64,000 bases of DNA. Source: a virus. The position numbers and the translations under genes are program-made. Within the stretch, counting starts at the first letter, position 1, and each line of letters starts with the position of its first letter. Shown here piece after piece: positions 7,756-57,856 of the stretch. The DNA lies in the IMG/VR virus record IMGVR_UViG_3300039351_000006; one strand, given 5' to 3'. Below the pieces are notes generated by a model. The model did not search any database. It was not told where the DNA came from and saw nothing but the letters and a program-made list of their open reading frames with translations.

Positions 7756-7837
7756 AGCACCGCCACGAACGCTAATTCATTAATATGTTACCAGATACAC
7801 ATTGAGCTTGGATAAAAATTCATATCCAACTCTTAAT

Positions 7838-7910
7838 ACTTTCTAACTAAAAATTTTCCAATTCTTCTACATGTTAATAATTCCTAACCAGACTATAATA
7901 CTTTCTAACC
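7838..7910. repeat. two direct copies of TAATACTTTCTAAC in the DHH-ParM intergenic region (candidate centromere/promoter repeats)
   Basis: Exact 14-nt repeat ~59 bp apart, upstream (in minus-strand transcription sense) of the ParM-like gene start at 7755. Confidence 0.35.
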
Positions 7911-7917
7911 AGCAAAA

Positions 7918-20938: not shown

Positions 20939-20944
20939 AAATTA

Positions 20945-21897: not shown

Positions 21898-21898
21898 A

Positions 21899-22105: not shown

Positions 22106-22116
22106 TATTCTAATCC

Positions 22117-23669: not shown

Positions 23670-23690
23670 TACTCAACCTTTCTCTACTTG

Positions 23691-23770
23691 TGCCCCCTAC
23701 GAGACTCGAACTCGTACTCCAATGGAAGCGGATTTTAAGTCCGCCGTGTCTACCATTCCACCAAGAGGGC
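23691..23770 (-). tRNA. tRNA-Leu (anticodon UAA), type II
   Basis: Reverse complement GCCCTCTTGGTGGAATGGTAGACACGGCGGACTTAAAATCCGC...GAGTTCGAGTCTCGTAGGGGGCA; anticodon loop CTTAAAA. Confidence 0.7.
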
Positions 23771-23871
23771 GATGGCACCCATAAAGGTGCCAAGTAACCG
23801 ATGGTATTGATTCCTCTCAACCAACAGTAACTATATTACATATCATGCAAGAATATATAAACAATATTCAA

Positions 23872-25440
23872 TTATTTCTTAACACGACTTACAGTAACTA
23901 CACCAAGCAACATTGCAACGATAACTATCAAAACAATAAAAGCCTTAGATAAATCAATACCCGTTGTGACCAGAGTTGCGAATTCCTTTTTGTCGTTGGT
24001 TTTGTCCTGAGTGTTCTTGCTATCCTGATATGGAGAAGTTGGCTTGGCAACTTGGTTCTGAGGCTGGCTGTTACCAGCATCACTAGACTTATTAGTAGTT
24101 GTTTCATTGCTTCCCTGATTTGGCTTTGTTTCACTACTACCATTGTCGCCCTGGCTTGGCTTGGTTTCCCCACCGTTATTTCCGTTGTTACCATTACCCT
24201 GGTCTGGCATAATCTCTCCGCCGTTATTCCCGTTATTACCGTTACCATCTTGACCCGGCTTTATTTCTCCACTGCTACCGTTACCTTGGTCAGGCTTCTT
24301 CGTTACTGTCAGGGTGAAATCAGCTTTCTTATCAGCAACCGTGGCTGTTATAACAGTCTTACCCTCCTTGACAGCGGTTACAAGACCGTCCTCAGATACT
24401 GTTGCAACTGTTGGGTCAGAACTTGACCATATTACCTCTTCACCAGTATTTGCCGGCGTTACGGTTGCAGAAAACTGGGATGTTTTACCTTCTTTCAACT
24501 CTGCCGGTGGATTATTTATTGTCACACCTTCGATTGGAGCGGGGTTCACTTTCAGCGTGAAATCTTGGTCCTGAATACCCTGGTCGTTCTGAGCTTCCAA
24601 AGTAAATTTAAAAGTACCAGCTTCCTCAGGAATACCCTTAATATGGAATTGGAACAAATCATCAGATTTATTAGTATCCGTCGGGTCGAGTTCAATACCC
24701 TTTGGCAGGGTTCCCGATTTCAGACTTCCCTTAATTAAGTCACCTTGGTTACTCTGACCAGCCAAACGCAACGTCTGGTCATATGCTTTATTTTGGTCTG
24801 CGTCCGCCATTGTCTGAACGGTGAAATATGGCTTCGGATTAATGGCGTCCTTACGCATTGCAGCAAACATGGCCACCGAACGATTGAAATACTCGTCAGC
24901 ACCGCCCTTATAGTCTGTCCACTCTGTTGCATAGTTGTCACCATAAGGCCACATGTGGGCACTTCCGCATGAAAGTGCTTCGTTGTCACCGAATGACTTC
25001 ACTGTTTCCAAGGCCGCAGGTCCAGTCCATCTTCCCAGAACGCAGTAACTTTGCCACTGGAAATACCCTGAACCCATATTGTGGCCGATTTCATGTAAGG
25101 CGGTTCCTTCCACCATGAAGCCTCTATTGCTTCCGAAATCTATAGTGCCTTCGCTGCCTGGCCCCCATGACTTCCAGCCGTACTCATTCATGCCATACGC
25201 AGGGTGGGCTTGAGCCGTCGGAACGCCTGGCTTATAATTAACCGTTAAATGCATTTTAACCGAATCAGCTGGGTGCTCAAAATTCCATTTATTCCAGCGA
25301 GCTGTTGCAGCGTCCATTGCCTTGGTTATTCTATCATAAGCATCTTGCTGGTCTGCTGTAGGACTTGCAGCTTTATTCAGCGTATAGGTTACCTTATTGT
25401 AATCTTCCGCCGCGTTCGCAGTCACCGCTCCAGCGACCAT
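23872..25440 (-). CDS. secreted zincin metalloprotease with Ig-like Big_2 domain, G/N-rich linker and C-terminal hydrophobic anchor
   Basis: HEIGHNMG (HExxH); Big_2-like VATVSEDGLVTAVKEGKTVITATV; C-terminal LVTTG + hydrophobic stretch + RVKK; a signal peptide (MRLKKKVLSGLLAAGI) is encoded immediately upstream at ~25487 but one nt out of frame across a T8 run. Confidence 0.65.
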   Translation of the reverse strand: MVAGAVTANAAEDYNKVTYTLNKAASPTADQQDAYDRITKAMDAATARWNKWNFEHPADSVKMHLTVNYKPGVPTAQAHPAYGMNEYGWKSWGPGSEGTIDFGSNRGFMVEGTALHEIGHNMGSGYFQWQSYCVLGRWTGPAALETVKSFGDNEALSCGSAHMWPYGDNYATEWTDYKGGADEYFNRSVAMFAAMRKDAINPKPYFTVQTMADADQNKAYDQTLRLAGQSNQGDLIKGSLKSGTLPKGIELDPTDTNKSDDLFQFHIKGIPEEAGTFKFTLEAQNDQGIQDQDFTLKVNPAPIEGVTINNPPAELKEGKTSQFSATVTPANTGEEVIWSSSDPTVATVSEDGLVTAVKEGKTVITATVADKKADFTLTVTKKPDQGNGSSGEIKPGQDGNGNNGNNGGEIMPDQGNGNNGNNGGETKPSQGDNGSSETKPNQGSNETTTNKSSDAGNSQPQNQVAKPTSPYQDSKNTQDKTNDKKEFATLVTTGIDLSKAFIVLIVIVAMLLGVVTVSRVKK

Positions 25441-25520
25441 AATACCCGCTGCTAGCAGTCCAGATAGTACTTTTTTTTCAACCTCATAGGGATTTCCCTT
25501 TAATATTTAACTATAATAAT

Positions 25521-25554
25521 AGTCGTCAATGAAACCTTCGCAACGTTGACGACT
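25521..25554. promoter_or_regulatory. inverted repeat AGTCGTCAA-(16 nt)-TTGACGACT between HTH gene and protease gene
   Basis: 9-bp perfect inverted repeat in a 235-bp AT-rich intergenic region. Confidence 0.3.
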
Positions 25555-25674
25555 CAGCGTACTAATTTTTAATTAGGGGAATCACTTTTCCATTATTATA
25601 TTAGCATTATCAGTGTGCTTACTAATACTTAGACATACTACCAGACACTTACAACGTACTACGCAAAAATGGTC

Positions 25675-25857
25675 TCATCTAACCATCCTGTATCCATAAG
25701 GTATTCTATAAATCTCAAAACCAAGAGACTTAACCAATGTTATTACGTCCTCTATTGCAACATTTTTCTGATCACCGGAAAAGAAGGAATCAATAGTTGC
25801 CTTAGGCAGATTAGATAATTTAATTAAAGCCTCTTTGCTAATACCCCTCTTTTCCAT
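25675..25857 (-). CDS. XRE-family helix-turn-helix transcriptional regulator (short)
   Basis: ISKEALIKLSNLPKATIDSFFSG resembles an HTH_XRE core; a 57-codon ORF (25827-26000) overlaps its start in another frame across an AAAAGAGGGG run, possibly a single frameshifted gene. Confidence 0.55.
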   Translation of the reverse strand: MEKRGISKEALIKLSNLPKATIDSFFSGDQKNVAIEDVITLVKSLGFEIYRIPYGYRMVR

Positions 25858-26284
25858 GCGGTGAGTAACCCTAGGAGCATAGCGTTATCCTTAGGATGAA
25901 GAGTATCCGAATCGTCATTAGGTTTCCCCATCCAAGGCTCATATTTCATTGACACAGCATCCAAGTCTATCGGCATAAGGGCTACATAATCTCTTTCCAT
26001 GCATCTACACCTCCTTAACTACTCTTTTGACTCTGTGAACAGCTACCCCCAAAGCAGATGCTTCACCACACTCTTACGAATAAATATACTTTACCAAAGA
26101 TTAACCAGCAAAAACATGACATTCAGTTATTAAATTATCCTATAAAGCATTAAAAACCCTAAATAACCATTGAGAATAACACTACTTTCTCTTCTCTCTA
26201 CCTACCCAAAAACTATACCCTACCACTATTTTTCATTAAGAATAGTCGGCAAAAGCCAGCCCACACAACGACTTCAGAGGCCAC

Positions 26285-26335
26285 AGAATATAAAAAGCGG
26301 ATATTTAGGGTAAACCAACTACCCTAAATATCCGC
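26285..26335 (-). terminator. strong intrinsic terminator downstream of gene 26354..26770
   Basis: Perfect 16-bp stem GCGGATATTTAGGGTA/TACCCTAAATATCCGC with 7-nt loop, followed on the minus strand by TTTTTATATT; a third half-site TACCCTAAATATC follows at 26343-26355. Confidence 0.6.
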
Positions 26336-26353
26336 CATACACTACCCTAAATA

Positions 26354-26770
26354 TCAGGACTTGGGATAGAACGAAAGCAACACCACGGATTCACCGACCT
26401 CTTGATAATTACTTAAAACATAGTCACCAATTAAGCCCTGAATACCCTGCTCGAAGATAAACTCGTTAGACATGGGCTGCTTCGACAATACAGCCTTATT
26501 AATGGACTTCACCAAGGTTCTAACTGTTAGAGCGCCCTTGCCAGTGTAAATAGAGTCGTTATCACGCAACTCCCTATTGACATTACTCTTCAACAGGAAT
26601 CCAAGATAATTAACTTTCTTTTGACCCGTGGACAGATGAGTGTAATAAGGCTTCGTAACAATGGAAGTCAAGGGATAATACTTGAACCTATTTGTATTCG
26701 CATCCAAAATGGCCAAAACCACTTTCCTATACGGGTCAGCCGTATACGCCTTCATTTCGATGGACAACAC
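26354..26770 (-). CDS. hypothetical protein
   Basis: 138-aa ORF. Confidence 0.5.
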   Translation of the reverse strand: MLSIEMKAYTADPYRKVVLAILDANTNRFKYYPLTSIVTKPYYTHLSTGQKKVNYLGFLLKSNVNRELRDNDSIYTGKGALTVRTLVKSINKAVLSKQPMSNEFIFEQGIQGLIGDYVLSNYQEVGESVVLLSFYPKS

Positions 26771-26931
26771 ACCTACCTCCTATTTTACCGTTTTCAAAAT
26801 GTTCAAAGTATTCTTAACAGTCTAAGACAACAAAACAGCCGACTCATCCTTTCCAAGCAGGAATACCCTATGCCCAGCGTAAACGCCCGCGCTAGTAGAC
26901 TTCTTAGCAATTTCAGAAGCCAAGCTATCAG

Positions 26932-27935
26932 TTAATCCCTGAACTTCCTTCTTAAGGTCCTTAATCTCTGGTCACGCATAACCAAGGACTGCTTAAGATT
27001 CTTGTACTCCTCAGTGTCTTCAGTACTCGCGGAGAGCTTGGCTCGAAGAGAATCAATTCTCTCTTTGTAAGACTTGTTGGCTTCTTGCAGCTTGGAGACC
27101 TTCGCAGTCTCCTCATAATACTTTTTATCCAGAATAGTATTCTGCGTTTCCAAATACTTAGAATTTTTCCGCTCTTCTTCCAATTGTGCTCTAACAGCCT
27201 TCAAGGAATCAACCAGTTCAGGCAGCTTACTGCCAGCGCTTTTATGCAGAGCTAGTTCTTCATCTTTCTTGCGAAGAGAAGCCGTCAAAATACCCAAGTC
27301 GGCTTCCGCCTTCTCTTTCTTCTTACTGGCTTCAGCCAAATCTGCTTCAAGCGTGGCAACCTTGTTAGCATATTTGCCACCCTGCTTGCTAAGAGCCTGC
27401 TGTTTGTCTTTCTCTGCCTCTTCTTTGAAAGAAGCATACTCTTCCGCCAGTTTTCCGCGTTAGACTTTACCTCGTCCAAGGACTCCTGTAATGATTCAAT
27501 CTTACTATCCCTGGAGGCAATATCCTTATTATATTTAGACTTAAAGGATTCTAATTCCGCAGAGTTGTCTTTAATGGAGGATTCTTTCTTCTCCAGATAG
27601 GCGTTTTCTTCCGTCAAAGCAGCAATCTTCTCAGTTAGCTTTTTAATGACCAGAGATTCAGTGAACTTTTCACCTAGCTCTGCTTGGTTTACAGCGTCTT
27701 CCCATCCTTGGAGACTTGCGACTACCAAGCGAGAAACCCACTTTCCACCGTAATCATCAACCCAGAAGCAGTCATCCTCTTTAATAGAGGTGTCACTATT
27801 CAAATTATTAATAGTGTTTTCCAACGCTTCTTCCGAGGTTTTCAGCTGTTTCAAAGCTTCATCAAGAGGCATCCACTTGTCGATATTCACATCAACATAG
27901 CTATTAGCCTTCAGCCAATCAGAGAACCTCTCCAC
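26932..27935 (-). CDS. coiled-coil protein interrupted by a +1 frameshift (ORFs 27285..27935 and 26932..27339)
   Basis: Both ORFs are heptad-rich; adding one A to the GAAAAC run near 27440 gives a continuous frame ...SNAEKLAEEYASFKEEAEKDKQQ... Confidence 0.5.
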
Positions 27936-28203
27936 ATCGAATACCCAGAGTCTTCATGGCGTCAACCTGCGATGTACTAACGTTATTAATTATTTCCACA
28001 TCTTCAGGGACAATGACCAGAGTACCCTCTTCGATCGGAACGGTTCTGACCTTACCTACAATATCGGAACTTGCCATCAAACCATACGTCATTTCGTCAA
28101 CGTTCTCCTTTTCCACAGCAAAACTGGCCCCTTTTCCTAGCTTTTTACTGAGATTATCAAAATCTTTTTTTTGGTCATTGAGGTTACATGCCAAAACCCG
28201 CAC
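27919..28203 (-). CDS. hypothetical protein
   Basis: 94-aa ORF. Confidence 0.4.
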   Translation of the reverse strand: MRVLACNLNDQKKDFDNLSKKLGKGASFAVEKENVDEMTYGLMASSDIVGKVRTVPIEEGTLVIVPEDVEIINNVSTSQVDAMKTLGIRCGEVL

Positions 28204-28388
28204 TTTTTACAGGCGTAGACACGTCTCTCGATATGCTTGTCACCTCTGCCAGACCTTGCATGTTGCATGGCATTATCAGCAGCCCACTTATTACCGTAAC
28301 AAAACTTGCCATCACAAGTCTTACCTACAATGGCACCAATTCGCTGCGCTGTATTCGATTTACTATTCCGCAATACAACTCCTTTCAT
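28137..28388 (-). CDS. small basic zinc-ribbon-like protein
   Basis: Cys pairs CDGKFC ... CKKCGFWH; 83 aa. Confidence 0.4.
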   Translation of the reverse strand: MKGVVLRNSKSNTAQRIGAIVGKTCDGKFCYGNKWAADNAMQHARSGRGDKHIERRVYACKKCGFWHVTSMTKKKILIISVKS

Positions 28389-28427
28389 TAAATATCTATT
28401 ATACTAACTATTTACCTAACAATAATG

Positions 28428-28955
28428 CTAATCGCGGGACAGCATAACCACGGAACCGGCGTTAAACTCCATATTAACAAACAGCAACAGGAGTTCCACC
28501 GGCAAAACCGCCATGTACAAAAGAGTAACGTCTTTCAGAAGCGCAATACCCACTAGGGCTATCAGCAGCAACGCTATCACAGACGAGCAAATTCGGTAGG
28601 CATTAAACCTGCTATTAAACAGATTATATAAATCGCTGGTATCAAAATATCTTGCCACTTTGACAAGATACATGCTCCGAGTAACCATCCGAAGCATGTA
28701 CATAACGAAGTAGATCGCACCCAAGTAGACCAGAAAGAATTCTATATTCACGGAAGTATCTTCATAATAATACTTGTCAAACAACCAGTAGACACTGAAC
28801 GACGCCGTAGAGAACAAATCAAAATAAATCATAAAGTTAAGAATACCATGATACATTTTGCCGTTGTCTGTGTAATCATAACTAAAGACAGCCTGTTCAT
28901 CATAGTCATAAAGGTACTTTTCCTTGCCCTTTTTACCTAGAAACGCAGCGTTCAT
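28428..28955 (-). CDS. polytopic membrane protein
   Basis: 175 aa with ~4 hydrophobic helices. Confidence 0.5.
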   Translation of the reverse strand: MNAAFLGKKGKEKYLYDYDEQAVFSYDYTDNGKMYHGILNFMIYFDLFSTASFSVYWLFDKYYYEDTSVNIEFFLVYLGAIYFVMYMLRMVTRSMYLVKVARYFDTSDLYNLFNSRFNAYRICSSVIALLLIALVGIALLKDVTLLYMAVLPVELLLLFVNMEFNAGSVVMLSRD

Positions 28956-29698
28956 CTGTTATACCTTTCATACTCAGCGTTCACAATAGCATTGAACTGC
29001 TTATTATTCGCACAAAGCCAATCAAAAGCCTCCGAATTCTTGTCTCGGTAGTCCTGATAGGCTTTGTAACGCATACTAGAGTCGTCTGGCAGATTATCCT
29101 CAAAATACAGCCTGTCATTATCCCTACGCAAGACAATCTTGTACTCTGGGCTTCCATACCAATTATTCAGTATATCTTGAGAGGATGTTAACTTCGCAAT
29201 ATAACCATCATTAATATAGACTTTCGTATTCTTCTTATACTCATACCATGACGGAGACGAATTCATGAATGGCCCAAGTCCTGAAGCGGACATTAGAAGC
29301 CACAGATACAACACCGTATAAACAACCGTAAGCCATTGCAAACCATTAACAAGGTATGCCAATACCCCTGATTCAAGGGCAACCAACGACAATGAAATTA
29401 CGCTTCTTACTAGGCTGGACTTAATTCTATTAGAGTAGTAAGCAGTCTCCTCCTTTGTCAGAAATAACTCTGTCCTAGCAAAATAGGCCAATGCTATTCT
29501 AATTGACAGACACTTGCCATAAATCCCCCGCAATACCCCTAGAGCAACCTGAGCTGTGATTACAGCGATTAAAACAGACCTACTAATACTTGTAGACAGC
29601 ACCACTATTAAGGTAGCGGAAAATACGATTTCAGCAGCAAACCTAAACCCTTGAAACATACAACACACCCTTTCTAAAGCAATAGGGCAAGCATTCAA
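28952..29698 (-). CDS. membrane protein (N-terminal TM helices, C-terminal soluble domain)
   Basis: 248 aa; overlaps neighbour by 4 nt. Confidence 0.5.
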   Translation of the reverse strand: MNACPIALERVCCMFQGFRFAAEIVFSATLIVVLSTSISRSVLIAVITAQVALGVLRGIYGKCLSIRIALAYFARTELFLTKEETAYYSNRIKSSLVRSVISLSLVALESGVLAYLVNGLQWLTVVYTVLYLWLLMSASGLGPFMNSSPSWYEYKKNTKVYINDGYIAKLTSSQDILNNWYGSPEYKIVLRRDNDRLYFEDNLPDDSSMRYKAYQDYRDKNSEAFDWLCANNKQFNAIVNAEYERYNR

Positions 29699-29772
29699 CT
29701 TGCCCTATTAAAATAACGATGAGGCGGTGTTAACAGTCAAACCTCTTGATAGCCCCACCAAGCACTAATTAA

Positions 29773-30714
29773 CTAGTCAATACGCGGAGCATCAAAATCA
29801 GCAGCAGTCAGCCCGAGCTCCTTGAGGTGAATATCTCGACTGGCCTTCCACATATTCTCAAGGAACTTGCGACCCATATAACGAAGAGCATCAGAGTGCT
29901 GATGACCGGCAGTCCAATAAGACTTATCAGGAGCATCGCCCTCGCCATCCCAAATAGGATGAGTAGTGGCAGTCACCTTGCGCCTATCAAGGTAAACCTG
30001 GCCATATTCAGAAATAGCGTATTGTTCCTTGAGGATGACCTTCTCACCCTTTTCATCAAGCTTGGGAGTACCGTCCTCATTTAGGACTTCAGTCTTCTTG
30101 GAGCGAATACCCGCCTTGAGCAGACCTTCCTCAATGACGTGGAGACGCTTCAGAGCCTCGGGGGAGTAACTTACCTTTTGACCACGACGGAACCGAGAAG
30201 CCTGCCAAACCACTTCACCGGTCTTCTCATCAGTGACGGGCACGGACTTCAGACCACAGTAACTAACAAGCTCACCAAACACACGAACACGGTTATCACG
30301 ATAGTGATAGAACGGGTCACCAATAACACCGATAAGGCGTCCGAACGTCTTAGCACCCACACCTTTTTGCAGAGTAAGCCAATCATAAAGCGGATAATCC
30401 TTAACCGCCTTTTCAAGCGCCTTAATAGCCTTGGACTCAGTCTCTTTAACAGAGTCACTAACGTCAATCATACGCTTCACATTAGGGTCATCATCTGGCA
30501 GACCAAGACCACGAATGACACCATCCTCATCAGCATCCTTCGTAGTCAATGCACGCAGACGATTATCAGTGGCGATACGCAAGCCTTCCATATCAGATAC
30601 AGAGCTAGCAAGCATGTTGATAATCCTATCTCCAGAAAACGGAGTAAGCCTATCCTTAATATCGGCATAGGTCATTTTAGGTTCACGAGTAACCCCACTA
30701 ACTTCGATACTCAT
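29773..30714 (-). CDS. hypothetical protein with helix-hairpin-helix-like GVGAKT...GVIGD segment
   Basis: 313 aa; motif QKGVGAKTFGRLIGVIGDPF. Confidence 0.5.
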   Translation of the reverse strand: MSIEVSGVTREPKMTYADIKDRLTPFSGDRIINMLASSVSDMEGLRIATDNRLRALTTKDADEDGVIRGLGLPDDDPNVKRMIDVSDSVKETESKAIKALEKAVKDYPLYDWLTLQKGVGAKTFGRLIGVIGDPFYHYRDNRVRVFGELVSYCGLKSVPVTDEKTGEVVWQASRFRRGQKVSYSPEALKRLHVIEEGLLKAGIRSKKTEVLNEDGTPKLDEKGEKVILKEQYAISEYGQVYLDRRKVTATTHPIWDGEGDAPDKSYWTAGHQHSDALRYMGRKFLENMWKASRDIHLKELGLTAADFDAPRID

Positions 30715-31069
30715 CGTATACTACCTTATCTACTATAGTCCACCCCGTTTGAGCAAACACATAAGTAGTATAACAAAAATCCTAAAAATACTCCTAGTTA
30801 TTCACCTAATAACACCGGCAGTTAAAGATAAAGGAGCAAGTTCCAACTCAAGAGTAATTTCAAGCCTAGACTCCCTAATTAGTTGGAGCATACGTGGGTG
30901 AGCAATAGCAAATATAAACTCATCACCATAATAGAAATTCCAGTAGAAACCATTCCTATTAAAGGCTACGCCGCCAGTAATACCCACTGCCCCACAAGCG
31001 GTAACAAGAGCGGAATTTATAACATCCCCAAAGCATTTCATCATGTCAGCAGAGCTTACACCACAACAC

Positions 31070-32600
31070 AAAAGACACGCCGAGCAACCCTAAAAATTTT
31101 CCAAAACACAAAAACAAAACCACAAACACAGACCAAAAACAACTACAGAAAATAAAGTATCCCCAACAAAAATAAAGACAGTTACCAACGCCAAAAATAA
31201 AACATCTACAACCACAAAAATATAGAATCCCTAACAAGAAAAATAACACAAACCTATCACAAAATACCTCATCCAGCAACCAAAAAATAAAGCATACACA
31301 ACAAAATACTCTCCTAAAATTAAATATAAACATCCCACTACTACACCAATAGCAGTCCACCAAATAAACAAGCATCCAAACCAGACCCAAGAGCAGCCCA
31401 CCAACCTACCCTAAAAAGCACGCCAAGCAGCCCACCATCGCCCACGGACGAAACCCGATACCCTAGGCAAGACAAGGGCTAAGAGCGGCCACAGGCGGAT
31501 ATAGACAGCATATAAGGGTAAGCCAGCCACCCAAGATAAACGCCATAGCCTACCCTAAACAACGACCATAGAAAATGCGAAAACGACAAAATACCCGTGA
31601 CCGAACACAGAGCAAATCCCAGCAAAGCAAGTCCTACCATAAACTATAGCTATTTCAGAGTAAGAATCCTACAGACAAAACACAAAACATTTCTACACGG
31701 CAACAAACAAAATCCCTACTACCCTATTTACCTAATCACCCAACGTAATATAGGAGAAATACACCCACCACGACCAATTAACCAACAGTCAAAGCAGTCA
31801 TCCTCAAGCTAAATAACCACAAAATAACAGACACAATAATTCTATAAAACCTAAGACAATCCTATAATAAGAAACCAATAAAAAGCACCCATTATCCAAT
31901 AGTTAAACAAGACATAAAATAGTCCCTATCCAACCAGTAATAGTCACTATCTAAAAACAACCCAAAATAATAGTTCCTAACCAACTATAAATAATCACTA
32001 ACCAAAATAAAAACAAGATATTTACCGAAATAATACTCCCTAACCAACTATAAATAATTACTATCTAACATAAATCCAAGGCAAATACCTAAATAATAAT
32101 TGCCAACCAAAAACTAATACTTCGAAACCAACGAAAACAAGCATTCTGATACCCAACAAAACCGGCACCAAAATACCCTACTCAGACACTTAGTAAACCC
32201 TAAAACCAAAGACACCGAACAAGCAACCATCCGCTAATAACCTACAGTATTTACACACCAAAAACCAGACGTATTAAACGCAAAACGAATGTAAAAACAA
32301 CCATAGAACCCCAATAATTATACAAGTAATTTAATACTTATAATCCAAAGTATAATAGTGCCTATCCAAATATAGACAATAACACTTTTCACAACAAACA
32401 ACATAAAACAAAAGGGTAGGCCTTAAATAAAAGGTCTACCCCATCATATAAACAACTAAATACTCATCATCTACATACTAAAACTCATCAACCGAAACAT
32501 CATCAATATAATAATCAGCAACCAAAGACAAATACTTTCTAACCAAAAACAACCAATCTTTAATATGTAAAAATACCCAAGAGGACTGAATATATCAGCC
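31070..32600. other. ORF-free region with extreme strand compositional asymmetry (plus strand almost only A and C)
   Basis: Plus strand is dominated by A and C, with G and T scarce; the only ORF (31046..31390 minus) is a low-complexity F/C/L/V/G/W artefact of the G/T-rich complement. Confidence 0.7.
31915..32075. repeat. three iteron-like direct repeats (~45 bp, consensus approx. CCCTA(A/T)CCAAC(C/T)A(G/T)TAA(A)TA(A/G)T(C/T)ACTA)
   Basis: aatagtccctatccaaccagtaatagtcactatcta / aatagttcctaaccaactataaataatcactaacc / aatactccctaaccaactataaataattactatcta spaced ~55-60 bp. Confidence 0.5.
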
Positions 32601-32604
32601 TATC

Positions 32605-33093
32605 CTAAAAAGCATCATACACATACAGCAACCGTCCATCCTTGACAAAAGGTATTGCACAAACCTTGTCTTCAGGCAGGTACGCAGTCTTATTATCTAT
32701 AAGATACAACTCAGAAATGTACTTTTCACCCTTAGGCAGTTTATACAAAACCACCAAGAAAACAACAGACACCAGCAATACTGCCAAACCAACGAAACCG
32801 ATCTTGACAAACAACCTAGACCATCTTAGCACCAAGGCGTTCATACCGAACACGAAGGAAACCAGACCAAACAAGCACAGCATCCAAGATACACAAGTAG
32901 ATATTACCCTAACAGCAGTACCCAAGGAATAGGAGCCCTTTTTGCTCTTAAGAACAACCAGAGACCTTGAAATACACACCACAAGAATTAACACAACAGC
33001 AAGTAAAGCAAGCAACCCTATAACATCAAGTGCACCTAGAAAAAAGGCACCTTTCCTACCCTTGCCGACAGTGGTATAAATATACTCAAACAT
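32605..33093 (-). CDS. polytopic membrane protein
   Basis: 162 aa, four hydrophobic helices. Confidence 0.5.
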   Translation of the reverse strand: MFEYIYTTVGKGRKGAFFLGALDVIGLLALLAVVLILVVCISRSLVVLKSKKGSYSLGTAVRVISTCVSWMLCLFGLVSFVFGMNALVLRWSRLFVKIGFVGLAVLLVSVVFLVVLYKLPKGEKYISELYLIDNKTAYLPEDKVCAIPFVKDGRLLYVYDAF

Positions 33094-33145
33094 GACAAAT
33101 CCTTAAACAAAAAGGTGGATAGCATACACTATCCACCAAGATATT

Positions 33146-34093
33146 TTACTCTTCAGCAGTATTAGAACCGCTTGCTGTCTCCAGCGCGGACACCATTTGA
33201 CCATACAAATCAGAATACCCACCTGGCGTACCGAAAGGCAGAACCACGGTCTTAGCACCCTCGCTTTCAGCCAGTTTACGAGTGACATCCAGATACTGGT
33301 TGAAGAGAACCACGTTATTCACTTCAGTAATATCCATACCAGCCTGTTGTAGGGTCTTAATCTGGTCAACGATACCGTTAGCAATCTCACGACGGTAATT
33401 AGCCTGACCCTCACCTTGCAAACGAGTCTCTTCTGCTTCAGCCGCAGCTTGTGTTTCAATTTCGATACGTTGAGCCTCGGCACGCTGACGAGTGGCCTCC
33501 TTTTCACGCTGAGCCGCATTAATAGAGTCCATAGCATCCTTAACGGCAGTAGACGGGTCAACAGAGGTCACCAAAGTTCTGACTACGGTAAAACCATACC
33601 GACTCATTTCGTCTCCAACAGTATGTTGAACATCCTGAGCTACATCATCCCTACGAGAGTACACATCGTCCAAGGACATAGCAGGGATAGCCGAACGTAA
33701 AGCATCCTCCATATAAGACTTTATCTGAGCACGCGGGTCTTGCAGCTCATAATAAGCAGTAGCCACATCATTAGGCAATACCCTGAACTGAGTGCTAGCT
33801 TTAATAGTCACAAAGACGTTATCAAGAGTCTTAGTTTCCAAAGTAACATCTAGCTGACTAACACGCAAATTGGTCTTGGACGCAATAGCATCAATAAAAG
33901 GAATCCTTACATGAATACCCGCCTTGGATACCTTATGAAACCTACCAAGTCTTTCAATAATATAAGCACCCTGCTGCGGCACGATATACACAGTACTCCC
34001 AGCAAGCAACAGCAGGACAACGATAGCAACAACCGCCGAAACCATAATAAACCTCCAAAAACAATATGAGGCCGAGCGCCAGCCCGACCTCAT
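33146..34093 (-). CDS. SPFH/band-7 (stomatin/prohibitin-like) membrane protein with C-terminal coiled coil
   Basis: N-terminal TM then VPQQGAYIIERLGRFHKV...GIHVRIPFID...LDVTLETKTLDNVFVTIKAS typical of the SPFH fold. Confidence 0.7.
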   Translation of the reverse strand: MRSGWRSASYCFWRFIMVSAVVAIVVLLLLAGSTVYIVPQQGAYIIERLGRFHKVSKAGIHVRIPFIDAIASKTNLRVSQLDVTLETKTLDNVFVTIKASTQFRVLPNDVATAYYELQDPRAQIKSYMEDALRSAIPAMSLDDVYSRRDDVAQDVQHTVGDEMSRYGFTVVRTLVTSVDPSTAVKDAMDSINAAQREKEATRQRAEAQRIEIETQAAAEAEETRLQGEGQANYRREIANGIVDQIKTLQQAGMDITEVNNVVLFNQYLDVTRKLAESEGAKTVVLPFGTPGGYSDLYGQMVSALETASGSNTAEE

Positions 34094-34137
34094 ATAATTA
34101 ACTAGTCACAAAACCAGTACTACCACACAAGGCAGTA

Positions 34138-36876
34138 TCAGGCCTGCTGCTTATTCTTCAGAATAGTGACGCCAGCACCAAGAGCCGCCAGCGAAACCGT
34201 CAGGATAACCATGGCAGTGGAATCCACACCGGTAGAGGCCAGATTCTCACCGGAAGCAGTTGCATGGTTAACCGTGTCAGCAGCCTTAGAAACAGCCTCT
34301 TCCGAGGTGGTCTGAATACCCTTGTCCTGAGACTTTGCAGGAGTCACAATCACGCCAGTCGGCTTGGCTGCGGCATCTTCCTTGTTAGTGGACGGCTTTT
34401 CACCCTCAGTGTTGCCGACTTCAGGAGTCTTACCATCAAGCTTATCCTTGATAGCCTGAAGCTCCTTCAGGGTCTTGGTGGACTTAGCAAGCTTGGCAAT
34501 AGCGTCATTAAGCTTGTCGTTCGCCGCCTGAAGCTTGACCTCAGCATCCTGAAGAGCCTTAATCTTATTATTCAGCTCATCAGTAGCATTAGCACTGGTG
34601 ACCTTGGCGAAATCATACTCCTTAAGAGCCTTCTGGTAAGCATCCTGAGCTTCCTTCAGAGCCTTCTCCGCACCCGCAAGCTTAGCCTGAGCATCCGGCA
34701 GGATGGAGGCGTCAGCCTTGATTTCATCAAGCTTAGCCTGTGCATCCTGCAGGGTCTTCAGCATGGCAGACAGGTTCTTCTTAGCCGCAGCTGTATTATC
34801 CTTCTTCAGAGCGAGCTTGGCAGCCTCATCCTGTGCGGTCTGAACAGCCTTAGCATAGGAGTCCTCAGCGGTCTTCTGTTCCTGCTTGGCAGCATCCAGC
34901 TTCGACTGAGCTTCATCAGCCTTGGTCTGCTTTGCCTTGACGTCGTTTTCAAGATTAGTCAGGTAATCAGGAGAGTTCACCTTATCAGAGTTGGCCTGAG
35001 CGTCCTTGAGCTTGGCATTAGCCGCATCAAGAGCAGCCTTAGCAGCATTACTTTCCTCCTGGGCCTTATCATAGGCAGTCTTAGCTGCGTCATACTTCTT
35101 CTGTGCCTGCTGAATACCCGCAGAGCTGCTAGTGTTGAGAGCCTTAACATAGGAGTTGACCAAATTAGTAAACCCAGCGGTAGTGTAGGACGGCGTATCC
35201 CAAGAACCGTCAAACGCGGCAATACCGTCGCCAACACCGAAACCGAAGGAGCTGATACCACCACTAATAAGATTAAGGTAATGACCAATCGACGTGTAAT
35301 TAGTAGTGCCGGACTCAGCAAGATTCTTCTCAGCTGTGTACCAGCCGGTAAACGGCCAAGAATTGCCGAGCTTCTCCTCCTCTTCTTCTGTCAGTTGCGG
35401 TCCGTTGTTCCACTGCGCATCGTAGGCCTTCTGCCACAGGTCAACATCAGTAGTGCCTGTGTATTCTCCATAGACACCGTTTGCAATATTCTCATTGGCA
35501 GGGAACATACCGGAATGACCCAAGTCCACCTGGCCGGAGTACGAAGTGTTCATCATAGCCATTACCATGGCAGAGAGGCTAATACCCAACTCGTTGAGGC
35601 CGTTCTTCTTACGAATGGCATTAACAGCATCAAAGTAGGTAAGAGCATTCTGCAAGCCAACAATGGAAGTACCGTCTTCCTTATCAGCGGTATTCACCTT
35701 ATCGAACCATGAAAGCTTGCTGCCTTCATATACGCCAGTGGTGAGCAGCTTATAAGCGGAAGTTGCATCATCCTTCTGCGCCTGAGTAGCGGAGGGATCA
35801 TTCATGACACTTTCAAGCAGGCCTGCGAAACCCTTATTGACCTTGGCTTGGTCAACACCGGTTCCCGGTTCCTTCTTGGCGTCATCAAGAGCCTTCTTTG
35901 CTGCATCCAGAGACTTCTGCGCTGCGTCTTCGGCCTCCTTCTTAGTGTTGTAATCACCTTGAGCCTTCACCTGGTTGACCTTGGCATCAGCCAGCTCCTG
36001 AACCGCCTTGTCAACCTGACCCTGATGGTTGGTCTTCGCATCCTCCAGAGTCTTCTGGGCTTCGGCAGCCTGCTTATCAGCTTCAGCCTTGTTAGCAGTT
36101 GCAGTCTCAACCTTCTGAATTGCCTGCTGCCGAATACCCGCTGCTGTGTCCTTCTGCTGATTTGCGGCATCAGTCTTGGCCTGCTGCTCAGCCTCTTCCT
36201 TCTGAGCAGTATCAGCAGCAGTCTGGCCGGCATTCACATCCGCCTGCACCTGATCGACCTTGTCCTGCTGGGCGGTCACATCCTCCTGAGCGGCATGCTC
36301 TTCACCCTGAACCTTATTCAGGTTGTCCTGAGCCTGAGCAACCTGCTCTTCCTGAGCCTGCTGCACCTGCTGTGCCTGCTGAGCTGCCTGCTGTGCGGCC
36401 TGCTCAGCCGCCTGAGCCTGCTGAGCTTGCTGCTGCGCTGCTTCCTGCTGCGCCTGAACTTGCTGTTGCGCTTGCTGGGCTGCCGCCTGCTCTTGCTGAG
36501 CCTGCTGCTGCGCCTGAGTATCGGCATTCACCTGCTGCTGAGCAACATCAATCTGCTGCTGCACAACCTGAGAAGCCTGCTCCTGAGGCGTAACCGCCTT
36601 CATGTCCTGAATAGCCTGCTGAGCCTGTTCAGGAGTGACCTCCTGAACCTGCTGGGGCTGTTCAACCTTATTATTGGCAGTGGTAGTGGCCTCGTCAGCC
36701 ATTGCAACACCTGGAGTTGCAAGAGTAGCAAATGCAGTCGCAAAAGCGACACCCTTGAGAGCGGAAATCTTATTATTCTTAGCCAAAACTGACCTCCTAT
36801 AACCTGTTCTACTATTTCTATACAGAAGCGACCCCAAATCAAACCACTTCAGCCGCAACCTAAACAAGCATAACAA
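34138..36876 (-). CDS. sortase-anchored surface protein: signal peptide, long Q/A/E-rich coiled-coil stalk, CAP/SCP-like domain, C-terminal LAXTG sorting signal
   Basis: Signal peptide KISALKGVAFATAFATLATPGVAMA; CAP-like motifs NENIANG and IGHYLNLISGG; C-terminus LASTG + hydrophobic stretch + KNKQQA. Confidence 0.7.
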   Translation of the reverse strand: MLCLFRLRLKWFDLGSLLYRNSRTGYRRSVLAKNNKISALKGVAFATAFATLATPGVAMADEATTTANNKVEQPQQVQEVTPEQAQQAIQDMKAVTPQEQASQVVQQQIDVAQQQVNADTQAQQQAQQEQAAAQQAQQQVQAQQEAAQQQAQQAQAAEQAAQQAAQQAQQVQQAQEEQVAQAQDNLNKVQGEEHAAQEDVTAQQDKVDQVQADVNAGQTAADTAQKEEAEQQAKTDAANQQKDTAAGIRQQAIQKVETATANKAEADKQAAEAQKTLEDAKTNHQGQVDKAVQELADAKVNQVKAQGDYNTKKEAEDAAQKSLDAAKKALDDAKKEPGTGVDQAKVNKGFAGLLESVMNDPSATQAQKDDATSAYKLLTTGVYEGSKLSWFDKVNTADKEDGTSIVGLQNALTYFDAVNAIRKKNGLNELGISLSAMVMAMMNTSYSGQVDLGHSGMFPANENIANGVYGEYTGTTDVDLWQKAYDAQWNNGPQLTEEEEEKLGNSWPFTGWYTAEKNLAESGTTNYTSIGHYLNLISGGISSFGFGVGDGIAAFDGSWDTPSYTTAGFTNLVNSYVKALNTSSSAGIQQAQKKYDAAKTAYDKAQEESNAAKAALDAANAKLKDAQANSDKVNSPDYLTNLENDVKAKQTKADEAQSKLDAAKQEQKTAEDSYAKAVQTAQDEAAKLALKKDNTAAAKKNLSAMLKTLQDAQAKLDEIKADASILPDAQAKLAGAEKALKEAQDAYQKALKEYDFAKVTSANATDELNNKIKALQDAEVKLQAANDKLNDAIAKLAKSTKTLKELQAIKDKLDGKTPEVGNTEGEKPSTNKEDAAAKPTGVIVTPAKSQDKGIQTTSEEAVSKAADTVNHATASGENLASTGVDSTAMVILTVSLAALGAGVTILKNKQQA

Positions 36877-37019
36877 CTATTTACAAAATAAGACTAAAGA
36901 TTCAGAATAAACTTCTTGACTTCCACGAAACAATATAGTATTGGCAGTCCTTTACCCTTCACCACCATCCCTACACGCCCATAAGCCGTCACCACAAGGA
37001 CACCGCAACCACCGAACAT

Positions 37020-37056
37020 ACGCAAAAAGGCCGCCAGCAGCCCCGCCAGCGGCCTA
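37020..37056 (-). terminator. intrinsic terminator between gene 37146..37592 and the surface-protein gene
   Basis: Stem AGGCCGC/GCGGCCT (15-nt loop) followed on the minus strand by TTTTTGCG. Confidence 0.45.
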
Positions 37057-37145
37057 ATACCCCGAACGGCACGCCCTACACGGACAAGCGATAAAAGCCC
37101 CGCAGAGCGGCCATAGTGCACGTTTTCATGCAACCAGAAAATTAG

Positions 37146-37592
37146 CTATGCAACACAACTCATATCAGAAGCGTACACAACGTAGTCTTCACCTAGCAAC
37201 TTTCTATATCTTTTAGCTGTCTTATTGGACATGTCCCAAAGATCATAAAAATCCAACTCATAAACCAAAGCCACTGTTTGAATACCCCACCTTTTACGTG
37301 TTGTAAGAAAGCTCTCTATTTCTTCGCCTTCTACCGCACTTACAACCAGCAGCACGTCAGTGTAGTCATCCAAGGCCTTCTCCAAATCGCCCATACTTGT
37401 AACAGGAGCAGACCATTTACCATCAACACTACTCACGTGCAGAACTCTCTCTTGGTCCGACCAATACGCATAAGTCCTATCATGCAATACCCATGATGAT
37501 ATCATATCCGAGAACAAGGTGTCGTTATAATTTACCCAAACCACATTCTTCTTCTCTTGGAAAATATCACAGCACAACGAAAAAGATGACAT
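37146..37592 (-). CDS. hypothetical protein
   Basis: 148-aa ORF. Confidence 0.5.
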   Translation of the reverse strand: MSSFSLCCDIFQEKKNVVWVNYNDTLFSDMISSWVLHDRTYAYWSDQERVLHVSSVDGKWSAPVTSMGDLEKALDDYTDVLLVVSAVEGEEIESFLTTRKRWGIQTVALVYELDFYDLWDMSNKTAKRYRKLLGEDYVVYASDMSCVA

Positions 37593-37662
37593 TTTTCCTC
37601 CTACATAACAATAAGGCCTGACCCACTGCTAGGTCAGGCCTTTCATTCCTCATCCTTCTAAA

Positions 37663-37930
37663 TTATTCTTCTGAAGCGGTAAGACTCTTCAACGTTACAT
37701 CAGTAACATTGCAGCCAAGTGGAATCATCTCAAACGTCTGAGCAAACTCCTTGACAGCAAGAACCAGATTACGAACACCAGTAGTTTTCACCTGAATAGC
37801 TTGATGTAGAACTTCTACGTTCACCCTACTCATGCCGAGAGTTTTACCGACATAGGTAGCGACAATCTTAGCATTGCCCTCTGGCAATGTTTCGGTGCCC
37901 ATAGTCATTACCACTTTATAGGTTTTTGAT
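37663..37930 (-). CDS. hypothetical small protein (likely start MASKTYKVV; track ORF 37663..38049 over-extends into the upstream gene)
   Basis: Internal Met just after the stop of 37916..38770. Confidence 0.4.
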
Positions 37931-38770
37931 GCCATAACGTTCCTCATAATCTTTCTGAACAGCCTGCATAAGCCTGTGCTGGAACTCCAAACGAAGCTTA
38001 TCCTGGTCAACGGTATTATGACGTTCAATGAGGCCTTGCACACCCTCAATACCTTTCAAAGGCGTTGGGTCTATCAACCTGCCACGCTCGTCATACAAAC
38101 ATCTTACCAGAATATCACCAAAGGTTAAACCCCTCTTCAGAGAAAAACCAAACTCCCCCGGAAACACAGATGTGTACGCCAAATCGATTCTCGAACCCGC
38201 CAAGGGCTCACCTCTATCAAGCTTTGCGTAAACGCGCCAATACCCGTTCTTCTTATGATAGAGGTACATCATGTTTTGACCACGGGTTAATACCCAGCTA
38301 ACGCCTCTTGTGTAATCGTCTCGGAATCTTAAACCGCCAAGGAACACACCGGAAAAACCATCAGAATAACCGTTAATACTTTCTGTGTAGTTATTAAACT
38401 GAAGCCAAACACCCTTCGGGCTTTCATTCCAGTATGATTTCATGTCCAATTTATAGGTGAGAGCTACGGGATTGCCACCCTTGCCATCCGCCAATTCATC
38501 AGAATAATCCATGTGGTCAACCAGAAAAGCCCATACTTTTCTTCCACCGAGGGATACTTTCACACCACCAGACAGAACTGCGAATTCCCCATCTTTGGTA
38601 AGGCCTTGGATTTTCTCGTCCATCAGTATTACGTCACCCGCACGCAGCTTCTCTATTGAGGGAACCAAATCCCACTGCACCGTAGAAACAGCCTCTGCCA
38701 AAGCACGGTGATAAGGAGTTACGGAAACCGTACTATTATACTCAGCTGTATTTTTAGTGAATTTCAACAT
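37916..38770 (-). CDS. hypothetical protein
   Basis: 284-aa ORF. Confidence 0.5.
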   Translation of the reverse strand: MLKFTKNTAEYNSTVSVTPYHRALAEAVSTVQWDLVPSIEKLRAGDVILMDEKIQGLTKDGEFAVLSGGVKVSLGGRKVWAFLVDHMDYSDELADGKGGNPVALTYKLDMKSYWNESPKGVWLQFNNYTESINGYSDGFSGVFLGGLRFRDDYTRGVSWVLTRGQNMMYLYHKKNGYWRVYAKLDRGEPLAGSRIDLAYTSVFPGEFGFSLKRGLTFGDILVRCLYDERGRLIDPTPLKGIEGVQGLIERHNTVDQDKLRLEFQHRLMQAVQKDYEERYGIKNL

Positions 38771-38772
38771 GA

Positions 38773-39270
38773 TTAAATACCCTTAAGCACGGCAGGAAAG
38801 ACGGTGGTCTCATCCAAGCTATCAGTGAATACCCTATTCTCTGTGTTTTTGCCCACGTTTGTGATTAAGTCGTGGATATGACTTGTCAGGCTTTCAAAAG
38901 TGTAGCCTTCATGCTTCTCATACTCTTTGTTAAAGTCATCAAAGACATTCTTATAGAGCAAATCCGCCGTGATATCCAACACGTCATCAAGACTCTTGTA
39001 AATATCAGGCAACTTATTAATATTGCCAACAATTGAGTCAACTGCTCTGTCTCGACCAATGACATAGACAGCAGTAAAATTAGCATTGTCTTTAAGACTG
39101 TTAAAACCATCAGCAATCTCAGTTAGTGTTTTGCCACCATCAAGCTTGACACCAGCGGATACCCTACCATATCCAGCGAACTTTCTAACTTCCATAAACT
39201 TTCTCCTAACGGAACCGACACTACAGGTCTTCACGACAACTATAATACTATTATATGATACTAATCCCAA
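38773..39270 (-). CDS. hypothetical protein
   Basis: 165-aa ORF. Confidence 0.5.
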   Translation of the reverse strand: MGLVSYNSIIVVVKTCSVGSVRRKFMEVRKFAGYGRVSAGVKLDGGKTLTEIADGFNSLKDNANFTAVYVIGRDRAVDSIVGNINKLPDIYKSLDDVLDITADLLYKNVFDDFNKEYEKHEGYTFESLTSHIHDLITNVGKNTENRVFTDSLDETTVFPAVLKGI

Positions 39271-40448
39271 TCATCAGAGGTATCACGGTAGGGGTCATGC
39301 AAGCCAAAACCTACTTGACCCACGGCCTCCTCCTTGCACTTTTTAGAAAGATTCTTCAGAAACAGCGCTCTGGCAACATCCGTATTACCAGCTGTCTTTT
39401 CAGCGGGCTGCGACAGCAGATAAGACGTAATTGTCTTTAGGAATTTTTGACGCATATCAGTTAAATTCTGAAAAGTATTGCTTTTACGCCAAGGAGCATT
39501 AACTCTTGTGCTTGTTGCAAGCGTACCAAAATTAAACTGGCACACGCGCCTATCTGAAAGATTCTCCTCCATGTTGGACACGTCATAGAGAGCATACATG
39601 TTACTGCCTGTTGTCGACCAATTATAATACCCTAGGACGCTTCCAAGAGTGGAGTCCAATACCCTGAAAGTATTTCTCTCGTTAAGGGAGTTCACCCAAT
39701 CCTGAAGAGAGAACCAGCCAGTTTCAACTGTGACACCGGCATTCACATCCTGGGAAATGTTATCATATTCTTCCTCCGAGGTAAAGCAACTTCTGTCTTT
39801 AATCATTCTTTCGGCTGGTAGCATACCAAGATTGGCGAAGTCACCACCATTTTTGAAAAAGACCTCGTTATCAAATAGCATAAAGCTAGTGCAGTTAACA
39901 TCTTTTTCTATGGGCGAATACCCTAAGAGGGGATCCCAATCGCTACTATATGTGCAGTACGACCATTTCCCGTCTTTCCTATTAAATAAGTTGCATCCAT
40001 TAATAGGCAGGGGCACTTCATAGAAGCCGTCACTCAGCACGTCTTTGAATCTGGCGCCACCCATGAACTCATCTTTGATATTGAAATTACTCCTGAAGAG
40101 GCCACTAACACCACTCATAGGAAGATAATGCGTACTGGTGTATTCCTGCCTGGGCATTAGAATTACACCGTCTTTAATCCTCTTGGCTATTTGACAACCA
40201 AACACATCACCGTCGATACAAGCCGAGTCAAAGAGCTTTCTTTCCCTCTCTGTAAGGCCTTTGAGGAAGATTATGTCACCATCTTTCAGGCTATCATAAT
40301 CGCCCACAATACCCCAAGGGTACGCACGGAGGGCATACTCCACACCGGTGCCAGAGGTGTCCCCACTTCTCAACAGGGCTATGTTATCCCCAGAAAACAA
40401 GGCATCTTTGTATACCTTTTTAGGTATTAACTCAACTATGATGGCCAT
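39261..40448 (-). CDS. hypothetical protein
   Basis: 395-aa ORF. Confidence 0.5.
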   Translation of the reverse strand: MAIIVELIPKKVYKDALFSGDNIALLRSGDTSGTGVEYALRAYPWGIVGDYDSLKDGDIIFLKGLTERERKLFDSACIDGDVFGCQIAKRIKDGVILMPRQEYTSTHYLPMSGVSGLFRSNFNIKDEFMGGARFKDVLSDGFYEVPLPINGCNLFNRKDGKWSYCTYSSDWDPLLGYSPIEKDVNCTSFMLFDNEVFFKNGGDFANLGMLPAERMIKDRSCFTSEEEYDNISQDVNAGVTVETGWFSLQDWVNSLNERNTFRVLDSTLGSVLGYYNWSTTGSNMYALYDVSNMEENLSDRRVCQFNFGTLATSTRVNAPWRKSNTFQNLTDMRQKFLKTITSYLLSQPAEKTAGNTDVARALFLKNLSKKCKEEAVGQVGFGLHDPYRDTSDDWD

Positions 40449-40496
40449 TTTATTCTTCCTTATACGACGAAGGCGGGTGCGATTGCACCCGCCGTA

Positions 40497-57495: not shown

Positions 57496-57856
57496 CTATC
57501 TACTTGCTTGTCTAACAAACACCACCAGTATACCAGATATTACTACAACAAAATAGAAAATGGGTGGTTACATTCAAACAAATGCAACCGCCCAATGCTA
57601 TGATTTCAAATGGCCAACTAGCAGAACGCCGAATAATTCTGCCAAAACCCAGTATAGCACAATATTATAGAACCAGCAAGCAATACTTACTATCTAAATT
57701 ATCTTTTTATAATACTTCCAAACCAAATAAAGATAATTATAATCTATAAAATTACCATATTTAGTAATTAAGAACCAAAGATAAATACTTTATAACCAAA
57801 ACAGAAACAGTGCCAATTATACAATTGGCACTGTTTATATTATGCTCCGAATACTA

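Follow-up and report, generated by a model that had tools for sequence, protein, structure and literature searches.

The 1560-nt block at positions 31045..32604 of the window (the whole 64-kb stretch of DNA that was analysed), which lies between a gene for a 162-aa membrane protein and an 80-aa ORF, is proposed to be a composite non-coding intergenic region. An element-wide strand bias, a terminator, putative operator- or centromere-like repeats, and decayed DNA or a leader would together make up the block, an explanation that is held with intermediate confidence. The unusual base composition, which first drew attention to the block, is the strand bias of the entire element at full strength in DNA without coding constraint.

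The window comes from a metagenomic contig of 237,352 bp (ENA ERZ27239646 k119_9227), and near-identical copies (99.4–100% over the aligned locus) are present in several other assemblies, at least one of which is labelled human gut metagenome. It represents a large, uncharacterised extrachromosomal element of gut bacteria of at least 237 kb (hereafter the replicon). All sizeable ORFs of the 64 kb lie on the minus strand, and the gene content includes an actin-like partition ATPase, a RecJ-like nuclease, a UvrD helicase, an SbcCD-like gene pair, ArdC, a sortase, an SPFH protein, four tRNAs, and a 912-aa surface protein with a CAP domain and, at its C terminus, a LASTG motif. A Bifidobacterium host is probable, because the next matches of the SPFH protein after its own cluster are the chromosomal SPFH proteins of many Bifidobacterium species (72–77% identity); the GC content of the window (44%) is noted as a reservation on this host. 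An assignment to the "Inocles" was rejected on GC content, which is 24–32% in Inocles versus 44% here. The replicon is possibly one of the "Hodor" gut megaplasmids, whose G2 group has a GC content of 44.6% and carries sortases and ParM (PMC12934698). The likeness lies in these three features; neither Rep_3 nor the giant surface proteins of Hodor were seen in the ~79 kb examined of the 237-kb contig. The genes bordering the block are those of the 162-aa membrane protein at the high-coordinate end (32605-33093, minus strand), for which no homologues were found outside the near-identical contigs, and of the 80-aa ORF at the low-coordinate end (30802-31044, minus strand). A BLAST search of the block against known phage and plasmid DNA gave no match. 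All relatives found among the contigs carrying the flanking genes were at least 99.4% identical, with no diverged relatives for a conservation comparison.

The original prediction of a 1.5-kb ORF-free block was borne out by several lines of evidence. Among the gene calls in ten assemblies of the replicon, no gene was placed in the gap wherever it was spanned. The period-3 signal was absent from the block (z 1.1), compared with z values of 4.2–46 in the neighbouring genes, small hydrophobic ones included, and no convincing combination of a Shine-Dalgarno sequence and a start codon precedes the sizeable ORFs of the block. An alternative genetic code or other hidden coding was rejected, as stop codons of all three kinds occur in every frame; the period-3, start-site, and gene-call checks revealed no hidden frame. 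The only ORF that had been listed in the block, at 31046..31390 (114 aa), had been dismissed as a low-complexity artefact, with which the present results agree: its product is rich in F, C, L, W, G, and V, as G+T-rich DNA yields in any frame, and the period-3 z is 0.2 over 31045-31400. Neither tRNAs nor Rfam families were detected in the block. A decayed paralogue of other genes in the window was also rejected, since a tblastn search of all minus-strand ORFs against the block remained at chance level, and a purine/pyrimidine-collapsed similarity search, which sees through transition hypermutation, likewise gave matches at chance level.

The plus strand of 31070-32600 is composed of A 0.473, C 0.266, G 0.090, and T 0.170. 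An A+C content of 74% supports the reported strand asymmetry, and the description of the strand as almost lacking G and T is overstated, with G at 9% and T at 17%. The sliding-window analysis that had been suggested showed that the block alone stands out in the 64 kb: the mean A+C content in 300-nt windows is 55% (sd 5.3%), and the block is the sole long run above 70%, with a peak of 82% near 31100. The block is not uniform. Its centre (31401-31640) has a GC content of 52%, with 19% G on the plus strand (31400-31640), and 64–71% A+T is found outside the centre. The tail at 31045..31400, which holds the composition-driven 114-aa ORF, is of low complexity and extremely G+T-rich on the minus strand (80% G+T, 7% C). 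The recurring ACAAAA- and CCAA-type units that had been noted are present and are explained by composition and by the motif of the 36-bp element described below, without strong periodicity; the best autocorrelation z in the block was 3.5, at lags of 21–24 and 63.

The cause of the skew was apparent from the rest of the replicon. On the minus strand the block contains A.17, C.09, G.27, and T.47, and its G+T content (74%) corresponds to that of the third codon positions of the flanking genes, which are 66–74% G+T on the coding (minus) strand (tasA.74, SPFH.74, the 162-aa gene.73, and the surface protein.72). At the four-fold sites of 55 ORFs, T was.44 and A.15 (.47 and.17, respectively, in the block), and all other intergenic regions lean the same way, less strongly. 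The bias reaches full strength in the block because no reading frame constrains the sequence, and there is no need to invoke selection for an unstructured strand, since the composition of the block is that of weakly constrained sites elsewhere in the replicon. Polarised SNPs on the gene strand (n=203, from relatives 99.4–99.6% identical) showed C>T at 3.1 times the per-site rate of G>A and A>G at 2.2 times that of T>C, in what is a small sample with uncertain polarisation. The equilibrium composition predicted from this small and uncertainly polarised spectrum matched the low C content, and gave T at 0.18 versus 0.47 observed. The gene strand probably coincides with the leading strand. Base skew makes a poor marker on its own, as any unconstrained stretch in a strongly biased replicon would look like the block, and skew per se should not be read as an origin or as "unstructured RNA".

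A repeat element of 36 bp was identified as the most distinctive feature of the block. It consists of two 15-bp half-sites, TGGWT-N6-TATT, placed at a distance of exactly 21 bp, or two helical turns. The half-site motif has 18 matches in the window, all on the minus strand, versus 1.5 +/- 1.2 expected; ten of these lie in the block, and five half-site pairs in the window are spaced exactly 21 nt. With a profile search, six elements were located in the block, and two and three more at 7914-7816 and 57801-57669, respectively; all are on the minus strand, and the ~15 kb beyond the window ends yielded none. In the direction of transcription, element 1 of the block (32505..32548; TGGTTAGAAAGTATT-N6-TGGTTGCTGATTATT, nhmmer E 9e-8) is located in the 3' UTR of the 162-aa gene, before its terminator. 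Next come element 2 (32329..32370), which overlaps the promoter-like match at 32379..32352, element 3 (32090..32133), element 4 (32027..32070), whose first half-site is degenerate (TAGAT...), element 5 (31965..32007), and element 6 (31915..31956). The pairs in the block are 51–238 nt apart, and half-sites occur there only in pairs. Elements 4, 5, and 6 coincide with the three ~45-bp iteron-like direct repeats of the original prediction. Those repeats are indeed present and in helical phase; the actual unit is the 36-bp double element, which occurs six times in the block and at two other loci. Together with their linkers, elements 4–6 form a local tandem triplication at 31911-32087, with spacings of 51 and 63 nt and 67–79% identity. 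Scans of genomes and metagenome contigs for the repeat, which had also been suggested, gave only unrelated matches, for example single matches or cyanobacterial tandem repeats, none of which scored with the element profile.

The two other loci place the element near genes. The cluster at 7816..7914 (minus strand, the second element weaker) is directly upstream of the gene for the actin-like (ParM/Alp-type) partition ATPase, ~60–105 nt away depending on the choice of start, and the product of this gene matches the PHROG partition protein (3e-19) and the MreB-like_C domain (9e-14). No obvious ParR-like small gene follows it, the next genes encoding proteins of 601, 227, and 727 aa without family matches. 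The cluster at 57669..57801 (minus strand, the third element weaker) comes right after a strong terminator and upstream of gene 56272-57495, a 407-aa ORF with a weak match to DivIVA. At two of the three loci, the elements set in directly behind a terminator. Because of the helical phasing, the strict orientation, the placement after terminators and upstream of genes, and the presence in the promoter region of the partition gene, the elements are most likely putative binding sites for a DNA-binding protein encoded by the replicon, operator- or centromere-like in character, and the 36-bp element may be regarded as a candidate centromere or global operator. The strict strand specificity would also fit a promoter-type or RNA-level signal.

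Transcription signals were found between and below the elements. An intrinsic terminator of the 162-aa gene lies at 32405..32444 (minus strand), where the hairpin GGGGUAGACC..GGCCUACCC (MFE -16.4 kcal/mol, z -3.06) is followed by the U-run UUUUGUUUU. A degenerate copy of a terminator module, located at 31484..31559 (minus strand) within the GC-richer centre, matches the intact module at 26276-26351 with 75% identity (79 nt, E 4e-6) and has largely lost its hairpin. The motif TTTAGGGTAGG, which is part of the terminator stem at 26290-26351, is enriched (12 occurrences versus 2.6 expected), in part because the block holds this degenerate copy. The remainder of the block, outside these named parts, is without repeats, without structure beyond that of shuffled sequence, and without similarity to anything.

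The proposed explanation of the block has three parts. First, as the composition data show, the strand bias of the replicon sets the A+C excess of the plus strand, unchecked by coding. Second, the terminator ends the 162-aa gene, and the six 36-bp elements would bind a protein encoded by the replicon as operator or centromere repeats. Third, the remaining ~870 nt (31915-31045) may be decayed or unconstrained DNA, or could serve as a long leader of the 80-aa ORF and tasA. The distance from the last element to the next gene is ~870 nt in the block versus ~100–180 nt at the two other loci, and because a gene follows so closely there, the comparison favours the degeneration, in the block, of an earlier transcription unit to which the degenerate terminator-module copy would have belonged. 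Several observations stand against the overall scheme: the SNP equilibrium misses the high T content, the gene-free ~870 nt after the elements is unlike the arrangement at the other two loci, the actin-like gene is not followed by an obvious small ParR-like gene, and the strand specificity of the elements has the other possible readings given above.

The folding of the two strands bears on whether the block is instead expressed as RNA. The A/C-rich plus strand had been predicted to be unstructured, and by MFE it is nearly unfoldable, with a mean of -12.3 kcal/mol per 200 nt in the block versus -42.7 +/- 11.4 outside. Because all genes run on the minus strand, it is most likely this G+U-rich strand that is transcribed; its mean MFE per 200 nt is -40.7 in the block versus -55.1 +/- 7.9 outside, and it folds about as well as shuffled sequence. 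A long non-coding RNA or untranslated leader transcribed from the minus strand, G+U-rich, C-poor, and a poor Rho substrate, is an unlikely explanation of the block as a whole, although the block is oriented as all genes are and stops 1 nt short of the ATG with which the 80-aa ORF starts. Transcription of this kind would begin past the terminator at ~32405 and proceed in the direction of the 80-aa ORF and tasA. The terminator is followed by the sole sigma-70-like promoter match in the region (TTGTCT-16-TATTAT, 32379..32352), and the segment 32100-32420 folds better than its shuffles (z -2.75, 1/100); however, promoter-like matches in the block are fewer than in shuffled sequence (1 versus 6.3), and three other segments showed no advantage over their shuffles (z -0.4 to -0.7). 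Furthermore, no Rfam match appeared even at E values up to 5, and no diverged homologues were found. The results neither supported nor contradicted an RNA sponge or an attachment site, two further roles that had been suggested.

A replication origin or single-strand initiation zone had been considered to fit the pattern. That the block is an iteron-type oriV or such a zone is improbable, and an origin at this position is poorly supported. The direct repeats in helical phase (21 bp), the 1.5-kb non-coding stretch that is A+T-rich outside its centre, and the unstructured plus strand would suit an origin, and sortase-bearing gut megaplasmids have been reported to carry a non-coding putative oriV of >2 kb beside Rep_3 (PMC12934698). 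However, the cumulative GC skew falls monotonically across the window with no turn at the block, and the genes keep their minus-strand orientation on both sides of it. A TTATCCACA-type DnaA box is absent from the block when up to one mismatch is allowed, and no Rep-family Pfam match is on record for the called genes within ~10 kb on either side, the neighbours being a membrane protein, an SPFH protein, the 80-aa ORF, and TasA. An iteron oriV is expected to have at least three contiguous direct repeats of ~17–22 bp in helical phase; the half-sites of the block are in phase at 21 bp and come as isolated pairs. These repeats are also shared with two ordinary genes, upstream of which they lie at 7.9 and 57.7 kb, ~25 kb off on either side. 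A unidirectional or otherwise atypical origin is conceivable, with nothing specific in its favour.

The gene downstream of the 80-aa ORF provided a further alternative. Its product had been called an HhH protein; profile and structure matches identify it instead as TasA, an RNA-guided, TIGR-associated Nop-domain protein of 313 aa encoded at 29773..30714 (minus strand), 330 nt from the block and co-oriented with it. TasA contains a coiled coil and a Nop domain and no nuclease domain. Its AlphaFold model (pLDDT 78) matches the bridge-RNA recombinases IS621 and ISCro4 and TasH-tigRNA complexes in Foldseek searches (TasH, IS621), and a six-sequence profile matches TaTasR (PDB 9MTY; bioRxiv 10.64898/2026.09.09.750476) with an E value of 2e-20 and TasH with 5e-9. 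The protein is intact: in a family alignment of 17 sequences, itself included, it retains every one of the 21 invariant columns. The closest homologue shares 42% identity (BLASTP) and is encoded on a 1.5-kb contig.

Since TIGR arrays normally flank tas genes (PMC12045711), the block was tested as an array. As a positive control, a rule-based scan found canonical stem-loop units in most of 71 viral loci with TasA homologues. The unit in these loci is an 8–14-bp stem around CCA-N9-CG-N4/5-CCA-N9-CG; the units are co-oriented with tas, spaced by ~58 nt, and located immediately upstream of the gene, often also inside the tas coding sequence; in one homologue they overlap the 5' end of the coding sequence. 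In homologous loci, between 4 and 13 tigRNA units occupy the position that corresponds to the block. In the window, the rule-based scan, which was modelled on TIGRFinder, detected no units. The sequence CCA-N9-CG-N3-6-CCA is absent from the whole minus strand of the window even without the stem requirement, and the minus strand of the block contains no CCA at all. A C>T-tolerant unit scan remained at chance level, wobble-tolerant hairpins were not significantly enriched (47 versus 33 +/- 8 in shuffles), and neither inverted repeats in unit positions nor a 36–42-nt periodicity was found in the block. A covariance model was built from 65 tigRNA units of the TasA family, and it recovered units of 20–35 bits in homologous loci left out of training. 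Its best match in the 64-kb window (11 bits, E 4) falls outside the block, and nothing was detected in the two flanking loci, which add ~15 kb. Dual-repeat TIGR arrays, with alternating 8–12-nt repeats, 9-nt spacers, a ~36-nt tandem period, and mostly 5–15 repeats, were also considered; the periodicity is absent, and the 36-bp elements are isolated pairs with partly conserved N6 gaps that also occur far from tasA.

Judged by these searches, the block takes the place of a TIGR array but is not one in any recognisable form. A guide-RNA array for TasA that has decayed by strand-biased mutation or is non-canonical is very unlikely: the adjacent protein is a Tas by profile and Foldseek and has remained intact, most of the 71 homologous loci carry a co-oriented array of ~58-nt period just upstream, and the repeats of the block are 51 and 63 nt apart, but the rule-based, C>T-tolerant, hairpin, periodicity, and covariance-model searches were all negative. 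There is an even smaller chance that the block is a guide source or a processing-enhancing context for TasA without box C/D stem-loops, or that the 36-bp elements are DNA targets through which TasA would repress the partition gene or other promoters. If true, a guide source without box C/D stem-loop units would constitute a third TIGR architecture. An intact TasA without a recognisable tigRNA in ~79 kb, beside 1.5 kb of non-coding DNA, is a case of a Tas protein without a detectable array. Moreover, the covariance model of the tigRNA unit of the TasA family detects units where the rule-based scan found few or none.

Unannotated minus-strand genes for small hydrophobic proteins, such as the 114-aa ORF or a 53-aa ORF, are a highly improbable explanation: open minus-strand frames exist beside genes for membrane proteins, the repeat spacings of 51 and 63 nt are multiples of 3, and the stop codon of the 114-aa ORF lies 1 nt before the next ATG, but few stop codons are expected in G+T-rich DNA from composition alone, the period-3 z is 0.2 for 31045-31400 and -0.6 for 31400-31660, no Shine-Dalgarno sequence with a start codon and no gene call in any spanning assembly accompanies these frames, and tblastn of the other minus-strand ORFs of the window against the block gave no convincing similarity.

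The proposed composite region can be compared with several known systems. Like the stem-loop TIGR arrays of the TasA family (PMC12045711; bioRxiv 10.64898/2026.09.09.750476), the block is non-coding, upstream of an intact tasA, and co-oriented with it. In contrast to those arrays, pairs of box C (CCA/CNA) and box D (CG/TG) with an N9 spacer are missing from it, as are flanking stems, and the covariance model gives no match there. The block also resembles the putative oriV found beside Rep_3 in the "Hodor" elements (PMC12934698) in being long, A+T-rich, and non-coding with direct repeats, and its host element is likewise a large gut element with sortase and surface-protein genes. It differs from that oriV in that no Rep-family Pfam match is on record for the called genes around it, no DnaA boxes or skew turn accompany the repeats, and the repeats are shared with ordinary promoter regions.

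A G+T-rich leading or non-template strand is characteristic of many bacterial replicons and of the vertebrate mitochondrial heavy strand. The replicon follows this replication- or transcription-linked asymmetry: along the whole of its gene strand there is more G than C and more T than A, unconstrained sites show the strongest bias, and the strand has an excess of C>T and A>G changes. On the other hand, the bias is unusually strong, with third positions at 66–74% G+T, and the equilibrium derived from the SNPs misses the T excess. The ParR-parC systems of R1 and pSK41 use centromere/operator repeats for plasmid partition, and heptad arrays for the omega protein sit in several promoter regions of pSM19035. 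The 36-bp elements differ from both in their own sequence and architecture, with pairs of 15-bp half-sites 21 bp apart, and their largest cluster, in the block, has no gene for ~870 nt. As in the known systems, short phased direct repeats immediately precede the gene of a partition ATPase, which is actin-like in the present case, and the elements recur at several promoter-proximal loci in one orientation. This new, strictly strand-specific 36-bp element links three loci of the replicon, among them the actin-like partition gene's promoter region.

On its minus strand, which is the gene strand throughout, the gene-free, G+T-rich block (31045-32604) is strongly depleted of the dinucleotide CA, with A following only 8 of 141 C (17% expected) and T following C in 61% of cases. 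Comparison of 22833-40712 with the near-identical relatives L002 and L006-L010 gave 23 T>A and 3 A>T single-nucleotide differences on the gene strand, and this excess of T>A over A>T is the opposite of what the high T content of unconstrained sites would lead one to expect.

The 36-bp double-repeat element, in which two TGGWT-N6-TATT half-sites lie 21 bp apart, occurs in three clusters (7816-7914, 31915-32548 and 57669-57801) spaced about 24-25 kb from each other, and no further cluster was found within about 8 kb outside either end of the window. The block also holds, at 31484-31559, a degenerate copy of a terminator module located at 26276-26351 on the minus strand. The module contains the segment TTTAGGGTAG in duplicate, the second copy of which forms a 16-bp stem, and single copies of the same motif are present at 26201-26211, 21871-21881 and 2360-2370. 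Another intergenic region rich in G+T (67%), which is smaller than the block, lies at 36877-37145 with a gene for a 912-aa surface protein downstream. Within this region, a tigRNA-like pattern, CCA-N9-CG-N3-CCA-N9-CG, at 36992 on the plus strand lacks flanking stems and was judged to be a chance match.

The SPFH protein encoded at 33146-34093 (minus strand) shares 72-77% identity with SPFH proteins encoded on the chromosomes of many Bifidobacterium species, and the GC content of the window is only 44%, well below that of Bifidobacterium chromosomes. Taken together, these two values point to Bifidobacterium as the probable host and to an SPFH gene that may have been acquired and then recoded to the composition of the element. 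Four tRNA genes (Gln-TTG, Met-CAT, Leu-CAA and Leu-TAA), all on the gene strand, are found in a gene-poor stretch at 18587-23770. Just beyond window position 1, the contig sequence L268 (15257-22184) encodes an FHA-domain protein, a PP2C phosphatase and a Ser/Thr protein kinase, and after these genes comes an ORF of >2283 aa. This arrangement suggests that the element may carry genes for a signalling module as well as for a giant protein.

A gene neighbouring the block (29773-30714, minus strand) encodes an intact TIGR-associated protein of the TasA type, which possesses a Nop domain and a coiled coil but lacks a nuclease domain. Neither the 64-kb window nor about 15 kb of flanking sequence contains a recognisable tigRNA unit. 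In most of the 71 loci homologous to this TasA locus, canonical arrays lie directly upstream. Stem-loop TIGR units are found at 227-293 and 325-375 of homologue locus L012 and at 560-740 and 1610-1880 of L013, in which the stem-loop arms are CCGGCCGGGG and CCCCGGCCGG, separated by 30 nt. In L013, the upstream units extend over the initial ~150 nt of the coding sequence of tas, and the low-complexity N-terminus of its Tas protein is translated array.
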